Source of the DNA: Escherichia coli
GTDB lineage: Bacteria; Pseudomonadota; Gammaproteobacteria; Enterobacterales; Enterobacteriaceae
Strand: one strand, 5' to 3'
NCBI RefSeq assembly: GCF_024502345.1
Contig: NZ_JALDNN010000001.1
DNA: 64,000 nt
Part shown: positions 15,901 to 57,216 of the stretch, one piece after another
How positions within the stretch are numbered: position 1 is the stretch's first letter
How the letters are laid out: every line of letters starts with the position of its first letter
Notes under the pieces: generated by a model
Seen by the model: only the letters and a program-made list of their open reading frames with translations
Databases searched by the model: none
What the model was told of the DNA's origin: nothing
Made by a program: the position numbers and the translations under genes

Positions 15901-16054
15901 GCACCCCTCCCTGTTTATGGAAAGTGTGCAACTTTGTTGAGCGGTTGTCTGGTGGGAATTTTGCGTTCCCCGAGGCACATTCAGAAGAATTTAACGAAAG
16001 GGTGAAAACTGCTCAAAACTCTGCGAGGCAGCTTCCAGTTCCTGATTAGAGAAA

Positions 16055-16080
16055 TGAAAAAAGCACCCGACAGGTGCTTT
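16055..16080 (-). terminator. Rho-independent terminator downstream of ihfB
   Basis: Minus-strand hairpin AGCACC-tgtcgg-GTGCT followed by TTTTTTCATTT. Confidence 0.7.
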
Positions 16081-16106
16081 TCTCGCGTTCAAGTTTGAGT
16101 AAAAAC

Positions 16107-16391
16107 TTAACCGTAAATATTGGCGCGATCGCGCAGTTCTTTACCAGGTTTAAAGTGAGGAACGTATTTTCCTTCCAGTTCTACTTTATCGCCAGTCTTC
16201 GGATTACGTCCGGTACGTGGTGCGCGGTAGTGCAAAGAGAAACTGCCGAAACCGCGGATTTCAATACGCTCGCCCTGCGCAAGAGTCGAGGCCATATGCT
16301 CCAGCATCTCTTTTACTGCATCTTCAACCGTCTTGGCGGGAATGTGCGATTGCTGGGTGGCAAGTCTTTCTATCAATTCTGACTTGGTCAT
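16107..16391 (-). CDS. ihfB: Integration host factor beta subunit
   Basis: ORF track, 94 aa, [26 protein letters not shown].... Confidence 0.95.
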
Positions 16392-16445
16392 GATTCCTCC
16401 GGTTCCTTAAAGGCAAATTAAGCGGCTGCTGTTGCTGCATTGATT

Positions 16446-16467
16446 AAGGGCGGCCGTAGCCGCCCTT
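16446..16467 (-). other. Stable stem-loop downstream of rpsA, without a T-run
   Basis: Perfect 9-bp stem AAGGGCGGC-cgta-GCCGCCCTT between rpsA and ihfB; no U-tract on the minus strand, so possibly a processing site or partial terminator. Confidence 0.4.
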
Positions 16468-16550
16468 AGTGCTTGATTACAGGACGAAACCTGCAATCTG
16501 TCAAGTAAACTCAACAAACTTCGGAATAAAAATCCCGAAGAGTCAGAGAA

Positions 16551-18224
16551 TTACTCGCCTTTAGCTGCTTTGAAAGCTTCAGCCATTGCGTTGTTGGAGA
16601 AGTTTGCATCTTCCTGTTTGTTAACAGTTGCGATTGCATCTTTCTCGTCAGCTTCGTCTTTCGCACGAACAGACAGGCTGATTGCGCGGTTTTTACGATC
16701 AACGCCGGTGAATTTAGCTTCAACTTCGTCGCCAACGCTCAGAACCAGGGTAGCGTCTTCAACGCGGTCACGGGATGCTTCAGAAGCACGCAGGTAACCT
16801 TCAACGCCGTCAGCCAGTTCTACGGTTGCGCCTTTAGCGTCAACTGCAGTTACTTTACCGGTTACGATAGCGCCTTTCTTGTTCAGAGCAACCCAGTTGT
16901 TGAACGGATCTTCTGCGAGCTGTTTAACGCCCAGGGAGATACGTTCACGTTCTGCGTCAACCTGCAGAACAACTGCAGCGATTTCGTCACCTTTTTTGTA
17001 TTCACGAACTGCTTCTTCGCCTGCAACGTTCCAGGAGATGTCAGACAGGTGAACCAGGCCGTCGATGCCGCCGTCCAGGCCGATGAAGATACCGAAGTCA
17101 GTGATAGACTTGATTTTACCTTCAACACGGTCGCCCTTGTTGTGGGTTTCCGCGAATTGCTGCCACGGGTTAGCTTTGCACTGTTTCAGACCCAGGGAGA
17201 TACGACGACGTTCTTCGTCGATATCCAGAACCATAACTTCCACTACATCGCCAACGTTAACAACTTTGGACGGGTGGATGTTTTTGTTGGTCCAATCCAT
17301 TTCGGAAACGTGTACCAGGCCTTCAACGCCTTCTTCGATTTCAACGAAGCAGCCGTAGTCGGTCAGGTTGGTCACGCGACCAGTCAGTTTGGTACCTTCC
17401 GGATAACGTTTAGCGATAGCTACCCACGGATCTTCGCCCAGCTGTTTCAGGCCCAGGGATACACGGGTACGTTCGCGGTCGAACTTCAGCACTTTAACAG
17501 TGATTTCGTCGCCCACGTTGACGATTTCGCTCGGATGCTTAACGCGTTTCCAGGCCATGTCAGTGATGTGCAGCAGGCCGTCAACGCCGCCCAGATCAAC
17601 GAATGCACCGTAGTCAGTGAGGTTCTTAACGATACCTTTAACTTCCATGCCTTCCTGCAGGTTTTCCAGCAGCTGATCGCGCTCTGCGCTGTTTTCGGAT
17701 TCGATAACGGCACGACGAGAAACAACAACGTTGTTGCGCTTCTGATCCAGCTTGATTACTTTAAATTCAAGCTCTTTGCCTTCCAGGTGCAGAGTGTCAC
17801 GCACCGGACGAACGTCTACCAGAGAACCTGGCAGGAACGCACGAATACCGTTCAGCTCAACAGTGAAGCCGCCCTTAACTTTGCCGTTGATAACACCGGT
17901 AACAGTTTCAGCATCTTCGTAAGCTTTTTCCAGCGTGATCCAGGCTTCGTGACGTTTAGCTTTCTCACGGGACAGCAGAGTTTCACCGAAGCCGTCTTCT
18001 ACTGCGTCCAGAGCAACGTCAACTTCGTCACCTACCTGGATTTCCAGCTCGCCCTGGGCGTTTTTGAACTGCTCAGCCGGGATGGCGGACTCAGATTTCA
18101 GACCAGCGTCAACCAGTACTACGTCTTTGTCGATAGCAACAACAACGCCACGAACGATAGAACCCGGGCGGGTTTCGATTTCTTTTAAGGACTCTTCAAA
18201 GAGTTGAGCAAAAGATTCAGTCAT
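16551..18224 (-). CDS. rpsA: 30S ribosomal protein S1
   Basis: ORF track, 557 aa, [26 protein letters not shown]...; six S1 repeats. Confidence 0.97.
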
Positions 18225-18334
18225 GTTTAATCTTCAGGTTTATATTTAACGTCCACCTGGCTCCATGCCGGATGGGGTTGTTTAACATACCCGCTGTCAT
18301 TCCATTGCAACGGGGGTACTGCAAATTCGGTCGC

Positions 18335-19018
18335 TTATGCGAGAGCCAATTTCTGGCGCGCGTATTGTAGCGCTTTTTCAATCACTTGCTCAATGCTTAA
18401 GGTGGTGGAATCCAACACTAAAGCATCGGCTGCCGGAACCAGTGGCGCTACCGCTCGGTTACGATCGCGGTCGTCGCGTTCTTTGATCTCGGCCAAAAGG
18501 CGCTCAAAGTTAACACTAAAGCCCTTCTCCTGCAACTGTAGCATGCGGCGATGCGCACGTTCTTCCGAGGAGGCGTCAAGGAAAATTTTCACTGGCGCAT
18601 CAGGGAATACCACCGTTCCCATGTCGCGGCCATCGGCAATCAGGCCTGGTAATTCGCGAAACGCGCGTTGGCGACGCAATAATGCTTCACGAACGCGTGG
18701 GAATGCCGCGACTTGTGAAGCTGCATTCGCCACTTCCTGAGTACGAATTTCGCCGCTGACATCTTCCCCTTCGAGGATCACTTCCAGATTGCCATTGGTT
18801 GACACAAAACGTACATCCAGATGGGATGCCAGCGGTACCAGCGCATCTTCTGACGCAACATCAACATGGTGATGTAATGCCGCCAATGCCAGTACGCGAT
18901 AAATTGCACCCGAATCCAGCAGATGCCATTGCAATGCTTCCGCCATAGCCTTACACAAGGTGCCTTTCCCTGCACCGCTTGGGCCATCAATGGTAATAAC
19001 CGGGGCAATTGCCGTCAT
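18335..19018 (-). CDS. cmk: Cytidylate kinase
   Basis: ORF track, 227 aa; P-loop GPSGAGKGT. Confidence 0.95.
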
Positions 19019-19190
19019 CTTTATCTCCTTAAAACAGGCGTACCGTTAACATAACCGCGCGCATTATACGCGCCGACGCCACAAATCGTTAACGTTGTGT
19101 GCAAAAACCAGTTTTGTCTGTATTCAGATGGGGATTTATTGCGCAATTATAGCGGGCTGGCAGAAGACCAGCCCGAAAGATGACAATGAT

Positions 19191-19955
19191 TTACTTACCA
19201 GAGGCGATACGATCACGGATGTGTTGCGCACGCTCTGTTGATGGTGGGTGAGAGTCAAACATGGACTGGGTGCGACCGCCATCCAGACTATCCAGTTTTT
19301 CAAAGCTGCCAACCAGCCCCTGGGTGCTGATGCCACGTTTCTTCAACAGATCAAAGGAGAAATCATCTGCTTCGGACTCTTTATCACGGGAGTATTTAGC
19401 ATTAATAGCGCCTTCTGCGATATCACCCAATTGTGAGCGGGAAAGCTGGGAAGCCACACCGCTGGTAGCTGAAATGGCATCGCGTGCGGCAACGATCGCA
19501 TAAGAAGCTTTCATTTCAGCCAGCGAGTGACCCAACGCGACGTGGCCCAGTTCATGGCCCAGAACACCTTCAATTTCGTTGTCATTCATCATGTCCATCA
19601 GGCCACTGTAGACACGGACACAGCCGTTCGCCATCGCCCATGCGTTGACGTCGCTGGTCATATAAACCTTATAGTTGACCGGCGTGCCATTAATATTGTT
19701 ACCCAATGCTTTGGCGATTTTTGCCAGACGTTTACCGTACTTGCTGGATTTACTTGCGACTTGATTGCCGCTGTCCATTTCGGCACAGCCCTGATTGGCA
19801 ATCGCTTTTGCATCGGCATCGCTTAATGTTGCTGCTTTATAGGCATTTAAACCGGAGCTGATAGCCATATTGGTATCAATACCGTGGGTATTTTGACACC
19901 CTGTCAGTAATGCTGCAGAGGTCGCAATCGCCAGCAGTAATTTAGTATTCTTCAT
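19191..19955 (-). CDS. ycaL: M48-family metalloprotease lipoprotein YcaL
   Basis: ORF track 19191..19979. Start moved to the ATG at 19955 (MKNTKLLLAIATSAALLTGC, lipobox), 254 aa. HExxH motif (GHELGHVALGH). Confidence 0.85.
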   Translation of the reverse strand: MKNTKLLLAIATSAALLTGCQNTHGIDTNMAISSGLNAYKAATLSDADAKAIANQGCAEMDSGNQVASKSSKYGKRLAKIAKALGNNINGTPVNYKVYMTSDVNAWAMANGCVRVYSGLMDMMNDNEIEGVLGHELGHVALGHSLAEMKASYAIVAARDAISATSGVASQLSRSQLGDIAEGAINAKYSRDKESEADDFSFDLLKKRGISTQGLVGSFEKLDSLDGGRTQSMFDSHPPSTERAQHIRDRIASGK

Positions 19956-20123
19956 GTGAATCATCCGTTGATTAATCATATATAAATATTATGTATCAAC
20001 AACTTACATTGACAAGCGACGCTACCATTAATCAAAATGACTCACAAGGTCCGAAAAAAAACGCCGACAATGTGCCGACGTTTTGATAAAGAAAGATTTG
20101 GCTATTTATTGCCCGTTGTTCAT

Positions 20124-39259: not shown

Positions 39260-39429
39260 AATGGCTCACTCAAGCTTGCTCACGATTGATTCCAGTAACA
39301 AACCGTATTGTGTAATTATTTCTATAGCAGCTCGCTATATAGGCTTGTATACATCGAATAATTTGAAAATCAAAGAGATAGGTAGATTTTCACTCGAAAG
39401 TAGTATTACGTGTAAGTGAGGAGTAATTA

Positions 39430-39443
39430 TTGTTCGGTATCAA
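39430..39443 (-). promoter_or_regulatory. FNR binding site of the dmsABC promoter
   Basis: Minus-strand TTGATaccgAACAA matches the FNR consensus with one mismatched half-site position, about 170-185 bp upstream of the dmsA start codon. Confidence 0.65.
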
Positions 39444-39451
39444 AGGGAGAC

Positions 39452-39478
39452 AAAAAAAGCGCCCGTAGGCGCTTTTTA
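39452..39478 (-). terminator. Rho-independent terminator downstream of serS
   Basis: Minus-strand AAGCGCC-tacg-GGCGCTT followed by seven T. Confidence 0.75.
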
Positions 39479-39497
39479 GATTCAGAAAAATTGGGTA

Positions 39498-54001: not shown

Positions 54002-54223
<222 letters not shown>

Positions 54224-54476: not shown

Positions 54477-54564
54477 GGTGAGGTGTCCGAGTGGCTGAAG
54501 GAGCACGCCTGGAAAGTGTGTATACGGCAACGTATCGGGGGTTCGAATCCCCCCCTCACCGCCA
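54477..54564 (+). tRNA. serW: tRNA-Ser (anticodon GGA)
   Basis: 88 nt GGTGAGGTGTCCGAGTGGCTGAAGGAGCACGCCTGGAAAGTGTG...GGTTCGAATCCCCCCCTCACCGCCA. Acceptor stem GGTGAGG/CCTCACC, anticodon loop CTGGAAA, long variable arm, encoded CCA. Confidence 0.93.
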
Positions 54565-54615: not shown

Positions 54616-54695
54616 CTGCCTGTACGGCAGTGAACATGGTGGGCGGGTGGAGTATGTTACCAGTGAATTTCTAAGCTGCCTGTACGGCAGTGAAC
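54616..54695 (+). repeat. Pair of identical 20-bp direct repeats, each a small hairpin, downstream of serW
   Basis: CTGCCTGTACGGCAGTGAAC at 54616..54635 and again at 54676..54695, exactly 60 bp start to start. Each contains the dyad CTGCC-tgtac-GGCAG. Confidence 0.8.
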
Positions 54696-54909: not shown

Positions 54910-57186
54910 TTAATGCGCTGCTTCCGCCTTGTGCTTTTGTGCACTCTGGAATCCGTAAGTCAGCTCATTTTTCTCTTTATCCAGCGCGACGGTGACCTGA
55001 CCGCCGTCCACCAGCGAACCAAACAGCAGTTCGTTGGCAAGCGGTTTTTTCAGGTTGTCCTGGATGACACGCGCCATCGGACGTGCGCCCATTGCCCGGT
55101 CGTAACCTTTCTCGGCCAGCCAGTTACGCGCTTCCTGGCTCACTTCCAGAGAAACACCTTTCTGATCCAGCTGAACCTGCAACTCGACGATGAATTTATC
55201 CACCACCTGATGGATCACGTCAGTTGACAGATGATCGAACCAGATAATGTTGTCGAGACGGTTACGGAATTCCGGTGTAAAGATCTTCTTGATCTCTTCC
55301 ATCGCATCGGTGCTGTTATCCTGGTGGATAAGACCAATGGATTTGCGCTCAGTTTCCCGTACCCCGGCGTTAGTGGTCATCACCAGCACCACGTTACGGA
55401 AGTCCGCTTTGCGTCCGTTGTTATCGGTCAGCGTACCGTTGTCCATCACCTGCAACAGAATATTGAACACGTCCGGATGCGCTTTCTCGATTTCGTCCAG
55501 CAGCAGCACCGCATGTGGATGCTTGATTACCGCATCGGTCAGCAAACCGCCCTGATCAAAACCAACGTATCCCGGAGGCGCACCAATCAGACGGCTGACG
55601 GTATGGCGTTCCATATACTCGGACATATCAAAGCGCAGAAGCTCAATGCCCAACGCTTTCGAAAGCTGTACCGTCACCTCTGTTTTCCCGACCCCGGTAG
55701 GGCCGGCAAACAGGAACGAACCGACAGGTTTATGTTCGTGACCTAAACCTGCACGCGCCATCTTAATGGCTTCAGTCAGCGCCTCAATGGCTTTATCCTG
55801 ACCGAAGACCAGCATTTTCAGGCGATCGCCGAGGTTTTTCAGGGTAGCGCGGTCACTCTGAGAAACACTCTTCTCTGGAATGCGTGCAATACGGGCCACC
55901 ACGGACTCAATATCCGCCACATTTACGGTTTTCTTGCGTTTGCTTACCGGCATCAGGCGTGCGCGAGCGCCCGCTTCGTCGATAACATCAATCGCTTTAT
56001 CCGGCAGATGACGATCGTTAATGTATTTCACCGCCAGCTCTACCGCCGCACGCACCGCTTTTGCGGTATAACGCACGTCGTGGTGCGCTTCATACTTCGG
56101 TTTCAGGCCATTGATGATTTGAACAGTTTCTTCGATCGACGGTTCAGTAATATCAATTTTCTGGAAGCGACGCGCCAGAGCACGGTCTTTCTCGAAAATG
56201 TTGCTGAACTCCTGATAGGTTGTCGAACCAATTACGCGAATTTTACCGCTGGAGAGCAACGGTTTGATTAGGTTAGCCGCATCGACCTGACCACCAGACG
56301 CTGCACCCGCACCGATAATGGTGTGGATCTCATCAATAAACAGGATGCTGTTAGTGTCCTGCTCCAGCTGCTTGAGCAACGCTTTAAAACGTTTTTCAAA
56401 GTCGCCGCGATATTTTGTGCCCGCTAACAGAGAACCGATATCGAGAGAGTAAATTGTACAGTCAGCCATCACTTCCGGCACATCGCCCTGAACAATTCGC
56501 CAGGCAAGACCTTCTGCAATCGCGGTTTTACCGACACCAGATTCCCCCACTAGCAGCGGGTTGTTTTTACGGCGACGGCAGAGAACCTGAATAGCACGCT
56601 CCAGCTCCTTCTCACGACCAATCAGTGGGTCGATTCCGCCCACGCGCGCAAGCTGATTCAGGTTCGTCGTGAAATTCTCCATACGTTCCTCCCCACCAGC
56701 TTGTTCTTCGCTGTTTGGCTGGCTGCCAGGATCAGAAGACTGTGTCGGCTCGTCTTTACGCGTGCCATGAGAGATAAAGTTCACCACATCGAGACGGCTG
56801 ACTTCATGTTTACGCAACAGATATGCCGCCTGCGACTCCTGTTCGCTAAAGATAGCGACCAGAACGTTTGCACCGGTAACCTCATTGCGACCGGAGGACT
56901 GGACATGGAAGACCGCACGTTGCAGTACACGCTGAAAACTCAGCGTCGGCTGTGTGTCGCGCTCCTCTTCACTGGCAGGCAGAACGGGTGTGGTTTGTTC
57001 AATAAAGGCTTCCAGTTCCTGACGGAGCGCAACCAAATCCACAGAACACGCTTCCAGCGCCTCCCGGGCAGATGGGTTACTGAGCAGCGCCAGTAACAAG
57101 TGCTCGACGGTCATAAACTCATGACGGTGCTCGCGCGCTCTGGCGAAAGCCATATTTAAACTGAGTTCCAGTTCTTGATTGAGCAT
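54910..57186 (-). CDS. clpA: ATP-dependent Clp protease ATP-binding subunit ClpA
   Basis: ORF track 54910..57201. ATG at 57186 gives [19 protein letters not shown]... (758 aa); two AAA+ modules ([16 protein letters not shown]). Confidence 0.97.
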
Positions 57187-57216
57187 AGGCACCTCCCCCA
57201 ATTTTTATGCCTGCAT

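Follow-up and report, generated by a model that had tools for sequence, protein, structure and literature searches.

The region directly 5' of rpsA in the stretch of Escherichia coli DNA studied here (64,000 nucleotides, hereafter the window) is very probably, as judged from its anatomy and conservation, the translational operator of the rpsA mRNA, at which ribosomal protein S1 would mediate recruitment of the 30S subunit independently of a Shine-Dalgarno (SD) sequence, and free S1 would repress translation. The S1 dependence, the competition and the autorepression are taken from the literature, while our own analysis concerns the anatomy of the region, its conservation, its covariation and its identity to the K-12 sequence. 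The rpsA operator is already known, and the window adds no new biology; rpsA is a textbook example of an E. coli gene exempt from SD-dependent initiation, an exception on which S1 autoregulation is based.

The rpsA locus and its pairing with the anti-SD sequence

The coordinates of the features discussed below are collected in Table 1. The window has the gene order (mukB ... ihfB-rpsA-cmk-ycaL-aroA-serC ...) known from the E. coli chromosome. A comparison with K-12 MG1655 that took in the 3' end of cmk, the intergenic spacer and the start of rpsA (30 nt) showed no difference (206 of 206 nt, 100% identity), and K-12 is the organism in which the published rpsA operator experiments were carried out (summarised in PMC10931766, PMC3616713, PMC4408793, PMC3121790). 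The rpsA leader is near-invariant in the species: of 5426 complete E. coli records, 5422 carry it with an identity of 99% or more. What the preliminary description of this DNA had called a 110-nt leader is in fact the spacer between cmk and rpsA and does not correspond to a defined transcript leader; the functional initiation region is reported to reach position -91 (PMC3121790).

Table 1. Features of the cmk-rpsA region, given as positions of the window
Feature	Positions	Strand	Description and basis
cmk	18335..19018	-	stop codon at 18335..18337
Promoter-like TTGAGC-18-TACAAT	18364..18393	-	3' end of cmk; candidate internal rpsA promoter, consensus scan only
cmk-rpsA intergenic spacer	18225..18334	-	110 nt; bounded by the cmk stop and the rpsA ATG at 18224
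Hairpin H1	18290..18314	-	9 bp with bulge; loop AAUGGA, GGA at 18301..18303; MFE and centroid folds
Linker ss1 (H1-H2)	18276..18289	-	includes the nearly invariant AACAACC
Possible lower H2 extension	18248..18282	-	AAC 18280-18282 with GUU 18248-18250; MFE fold; evidence weak
Hairpin H2, core	18253..18275	-	8 bp with internal mismatch; loop AUGGA, GGA at 18262..18264; folds
Linker ss2 (H2-H3)	18236..18252	-	AU-rich single strand
Hairpin H3	18211..18235	-	7 bp, stem GAAGAUU/AAUCUUU; loop AAACAUGACUG, 11 nt, holds the AUG; MFE and centroid folds
Degenerate SD-like GAAG	18232..18235	-	-11..-8; 5' end of the H3 stem
rpsA start codon AUG	18222..18224	-	H3 loop; first in-frame start after a stop
rpsA CDS (30S ribosomal protein S1)	16551..18224	-	557 aa; ORF and translation; E. 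coli records label it rpsA

As a measure of the SD we used the energy (in kcal/mol) of the best duplex between positions -20 to -1 and the 3' end of 16S rRNA, ACCUCCUUA. The comparison included 19 of the 36 gene starts, those whose annotated coordinates verify, as the drift of coordinates beyond ~25.4 kb excluded the rest. At -1.0 kcal/mol the pairing at rpsA is the weakest of the 19 verified starts, for which the median is -5.6 kcal/mol (-9.2 for cmk and -9.5 for ihfB), and among random 20-mers drawn from the window about 70% match the anti-SD at least as well. The stretch CCTGAAGATTAAAC-ATG quoted in the preliminary description is found in the window on the minus strand, and its characterization as AU-rich is borne out by an A+U content of 75% in the 20 nt before the ATG. 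The accompanying claim that these lack any GGAGG-like element is correct with respect to a canonical SD, but goes too far if taken to mean that the region is wholly SD-free, since a vestigial GAAG is present. Overall, the missing SD at rpsA is real, and lies beyond chance in a direction that is unusual for a very highly expressed gene.

To place this result in a broader context, the S1 N-terminus was used in one scan of species-representative genomes, from which the 80 closest loci (the matches listed) were taken; these belong to Enterobacterales, Vibrionales, Shewanella, Idiomarina, Pseudidiomarina, Alteromonas relatives, Ferrimonas and others. Among the matches listed, residues 1-267 could be aligned and the ATG was found at the same place in 80 of 80 species. 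By duplex energy, no SD precedes rpsA in any of these 80 other gammaproteobacterial species: all of the matches listed fall in the range of +0.9 to -2.7 kcal/mol, and the lack of an SD at rpsA is therefore a conserved trait. If the missing SD were an artefact of annotation, the start would have been called wrongly, or else rpsA would be translationally coupled to cmk; we reject this explanation as next to inconceivable, because there is no in-frame ATG, GTG or TTG upstream before a stop is reached, the S1 N-terminus and the position of the ATG are conserved in the 80 species among the matches listed, and the cmk stop, 110 nt upstream, is too far away for coupling.

The GAAG has been described in the literature as a weak SD-like element (PMC3121790, PMC4408793), and one may ask whether it is a weak but genuine SD, such that initiation at rpsA would be conventional and poorly anchored. 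The tetramer is correctly spaced, it occurs in 44 of 81 leaders among the matches listed, and it is one base change away from GGAG: an A-to-G substitution at -10 creates an SD (Scharff et al. 2011, PMC3121790), a published change that matches the sequence of the window exactly, -10 being the first A of GAAG. Nevertheless, we consider a genuine SD very improbable. Its pairing energy is below the random background; the first G is changed to U or A in many species (UAAG, AAAG and others), and several leaders lack the tetramer altogether, with AUUC, GUAU or UUAU in its place; in the ensemble of the window's own leader it is mostly paired within H3 (unpaired probability 0.27); and translation of rpsA has been described as SD-independent (PMC3121790, citing Skorski 2006). 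The replacement of GAAG with GGAG is also known to eliminate autogenous control (Aseev et al. 2015, PMC4408793).

Fold of the leader and its conservation

Folding of positions -91 to +20 (111 nt) gives three hairpins, with an MFE structure that coincides with the centroid, and the same hairpins are obtained when 140 nt are folded. The base of the H1 stem is at -90, so that the published boundary at -91 lies one base 5' of this stem, while the 3' arm of H3 is formed by codons 3-5 of rpsA. The energy of the fold is not significantly different from that of shuffled sequences (z = -0.77 for 140 nt, z = -1.52 for 111 nt); since these z-scores are not unusual, fold energy gives no evidence for structure, and structure was tested comparatively instead. 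The preliminary description had proposed to fold the leader and to compare it with published rpsA operator structures: the folding returned three hairpins, with an unexceptional energy that leaves covariation as the convincing evidence, and the comparison produced a three-hairpin match.

Two mini-ORFs can be recognized in the leader on the minus strand, one (18297-18305, AUG-GAA-UGA) across the H1 loop and one (18246-18266, AUG followed by five sense codons and UAA) beginning in the H2 loop. They are probably incidental, because each AUG shares bases with the conserved GGA and is missing from other species, which have AAGGAUG or AGGAU.

The comparative analysis was complicated by a problem of register. 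RNAalifold, run on a plain, sequence-only MAFFT alignment, recovered H2 independently, but not H1 and H3, because the latter two are out of register in that alignment. To get around this, we first superimposed the E. coli fold on the alignment, and then realigned the leaders with a covariance model. In the sequence-only alignment, 82% of the cells of the three projected hairpins are paired, versus 33-51% when the partners are slid by 1-3 columns; double changes are seen in 18 of 27 pairs, and no shuffle attains the observed covariation. After realignment with the covariance model these figures become 88% of cells paired, versus 34-49% with slid partners, and 20 of 27 pairs covarying. A covariance-model alignment favours structure by construction, and the unfitted, sequence-only figures are thus the conservative ones. 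The model detects the element once in the 64 kb of the window, and once at each locus.

The support is not distributed evenly among the hairpins. In the model-fitted alignment (80 distinct leaders) H1 has compensatory changes in all 9 of its pairs, with 86.5% of cells paired, and H2 in 7 of 8, with 93% of cells paired; the lower extension of H2 is 83% paired, with a few double changes at 2 of its 3 pairs. In H3, 86% of the cells are paired over 80 distinct leaders, with double changes at only 2 of 7 pairs; covariation is small here because the 3' arm is coding. Even so, no variation is seen in this hairpin at bases G117-A119 and U122-U124, in contrast to the third positions of the codons around them, which vary. 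Thus, compensatory changes argue strongly for H1 and H2, and covariation argues weakly for H3. The compensatory substitution in H1 and H2 across gammaproteobacterial orders indicates that the structures themselves are under selection. The covariation of the putative operator structure extends across Enterobacterales, Vibrionales, Shewanella, Idiomarina and Alteromonas relatives; already in 2003 Tchufistova et al. reportedly found fold and regulation to be common to gammaproteobacteria, except for the Pseudomonas group.

These results bear on the possibility that an unstructured, AU-rich start is by itself sufficient for initiation without an SD, the upstream hairpins being incidental. The AUG has an unpaired probability of 0.94 in the ensemble of the window's own leader (the median across species, from single-sequence ensembles among the matches listed, is only 0.56), and expression drops to 12% in mutants whose rpsA start is more structured (PMC3121790). 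Both observations are expected if the start is open, but incidental hairpins would not undergo extensive compensatory substitution across orders, and the hairpins and the loop GG are reported by Fu 2013 to be required for activity and for regulation (PMC3616713). We therefore give little credence to the view that an open start alone is enough; as a partial account it is complementary to the operator reading rather than exclusive of it.

With regard to sequence motifs, among the matches listed GGA is found in the loop of H1 (L1) in 81 of 81 leaders, and in the loop of H2 (L2) in 70 of 81, while the AUG occupies the H3 loop columns in 81 of 81. The 11 leaders without GGA in L2 mostly have UGA; those with UGA come mostly from the Erwinia, Pantoea and Rosenbergiella group and from insect symbionts (loci L012, L020 (Rosenbergiella), L006, L016, L037, L053, L064 and others). 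This pattern suggests that L1, which always keeps GGA, and L2, which varies, are not equivalent. The linkers also differ in their behaviour: ss1 has a mean A+U content of 68%, with A57 and C58 invariant and A53, C60, C61 and A62 conserved in at least 90% of leaders; ss2 has a mean A+U content of 79%, a length of 9-21 nt and a sequence that is variable across species among the matches listed.

The two loop GGAs could in principle work together as a discontinuous SD, pairing with the CCUCC of 16S rRNA. Such a role would agree with a display of GGA that is universal in L1 and common in L2 among the matches listed, and with the importance of the GG of L1 and L2 for regulation noted by Fu 2013 (PMC3616713). 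It is difficult to reconcile with the presence of UGA in L2 of 11 of the 81 leaders. Moreover, in work by Skorski et al. in 2006, changing GGA to CCU is said to have lowered translation with no rescue by ribosomes carrying the compensating anti-SD, and a discontinuous SD is said to have been rejected. On balance, we find pairing of this kind hardly credible.

The published S1 operator and the proposed mechanism

When set against the published E. coli rpsA operator (Boni et al. 2001, EMBO J 20:4222; Tchufistova et al. 2003, NAR 31:6996; Skorski et al. 2006, J Bacteriol 188:6277; Fu et al. 2013, NAR 41:3491), the leader in the window (18225..18315, 5' of the rpsA start) appears as the same element, and nothing in it differs: both have three hairpins within ~90 nt, GG(A) in the loops, AU-rich linkers with a variable ss2, a weak GAAG and no canonical SD, and a boundary near -91. 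Fu et al. 2013, citing Boni 2001, describe helices H1-H3 and a conserved GG in L1 and L2 that matters for regulation, an AU-rich ss-2 that varies in length, and toeprints of S1 that fall on the H3 loop as well as on the AU-rich single strands (PMC3616713). According to other studies, the leader adopts a specific fold without a canonical SD, and binding of the 30S subunit depends on the interaction of S1 with the mRNA; control is a competition of free with 30S-bound S1, and introduction of a canonical SD abolishes repression (PMC10931766). Translation of rpsA is described as SD-independent in a study that used the UTR spanning -91..-1 (PMC3121790, citing Skorski 2006), and upstream 30S footprints are reported to coincide with the rpsA structures (2025 preprint, 10.1101/2025.04.04.647229). 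The suggestion in the preliminary description that this start fits S1-dependent, structure-based initiation with autoregulation is well founded, as the sequence is identical to K-12 and all the published features of sequence and structure are present, and either conserved or covarying across the 80 species among the matches listed.

These observations can be interpreted as follows. The rpsA initiation region would lack a functional SD, the ~90 nt 5' of the AUG being organized as three hairpins split by AU-rich single strands; H1 and H2 would display a GGA in their loops, while the loop of H3 would carry the AUG and its stem the vestigial GAAG. The 30S subunit would be recruited by its own bound S1, which would grip the AU-rich single strands, rather than by pairing with the anti-SD. 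Free S1, when in excess, would then contend with the 30S subunit for these sites and so stop the translation of its own mRNA; free S1 could compete and repress in this way because no SD anchors the 30S subunit.

A further role may be considered for the AACAACCCC linker, which is nearly invariant, and the invariant loop GGAs. Together they might form a specific upstream module, comparable to a standby site or an IRES, at which the 30S platform docks, beyond providing a context for S1 binding. We raise this reading because recent 30S-seq footprints are reported upstream, on the rpsA structures; we regard it as rather unlikely. If true, the novelty would concern the element in general, as the rpsA leader in the window is the same as that of K-12.

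Some likenesses to other systems help to delimit the rpsA operator. The initiation regions of rplY (L25) and fis are, like that of rpsA, efficient, autoregulated E. coli regions with a weak or absent SD, in which a weak SD-like element (GAGA in rplY) is combined with an upstream structure or an AU-rich enhancer, and in which autogenous control is lost once the SD is made canonical (PMC4408793, PMC10931766); they differ from rpsA in that they involve other proteins and other folds, have no GGA-loop hairpins, and are not repressed by S1. The mRNA of rpsO (S15) is another r-protein message in which a 5' structure governs S1-dependent recruitment of the 30S subunit, and in which upstream 30S footprints coincide with structure (PMC3858243; 10.1101/2025.04.04.647229). 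However, rpsO has an SD (GGAG), and a pseudoknot stabilised by S15 entraps the 30S subunit instead of there being competition. A cyanobacterial rpsA-leader motif, known from comparative genomics, also precedes rpsA, and is reported by Fu 2013 to be unlike the E. coli structure (PMC3616713).

Rfam 15 seems to contain no family for the operator. In a scan of positions 16000-20000 there was no match at 18195..18334 even at E<=10, and a scan of the whole window at gathering scores placed no family at the rpsA leader. Without an Rfam family, automatic annotation will miss the rpsA operator. The weak, sub-threshold Rfam matches in the scan of 16000-20000 all fall on the ihfB terminator.

Operon context and other elements of the window

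The rpsA gene is part of the cmk-rpsA-ihfB operon, with promoters also located within and upstream of cmk (PMC12083536). A consensus scan for promoters returned 2 sites versus 2.1 expected by chance; as this is no more than chance would give, we do not claim the promoter-like sequence at the 3' end of cmk as an rpsA promoter. Terminator-like hairpins with U-tracts are found on the minus strand just 3' of ihfB (16056-16084) and just 3' of rpsA (16519-16540), an arrangement that fits partial termination between the two genes.

As for the origin of the window, among 5426 complete E. coli genomes the closest one shares 99.4% identity with it over 25 kb (positions 1-25000), most others being at 95-99%, and the annotated coordinates of this 99.4% genome drift past ~25.4 kb. 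With a best match of only 99.4% and such a drift, the lineage of the window is therefore without an exact representative among the 5426 genomes, though its rpsA leader is that of K-12.

Elsewhere in the window, two CRISPR-DR4 (type I-F-like) repeats (54616-54635 and 54676-54695), spaced 60 nt, form a mini-array of two repeats and one spacer, with an Rfam match to CRISPR-DR4 at 54668-54695 on the minus strand. The mini-array (54616-54695) lies between tRNA-Ser(GGA) (54477-54564) and a clpA-sized ORF (54910-57201, minus strand), with an infA-sized ORF (54005-54223) nearby; we take it to be the known orphan I-F CRISPR remnant that is located between clpA and infA in E. coli. Finally, the dmsA-serS intergenic region (39350-39484, plus strand) matches the Rfam family of STnc130, an enterobacterial sRNA, strongly, with a score of 139 bits versus a gathering score of 55.
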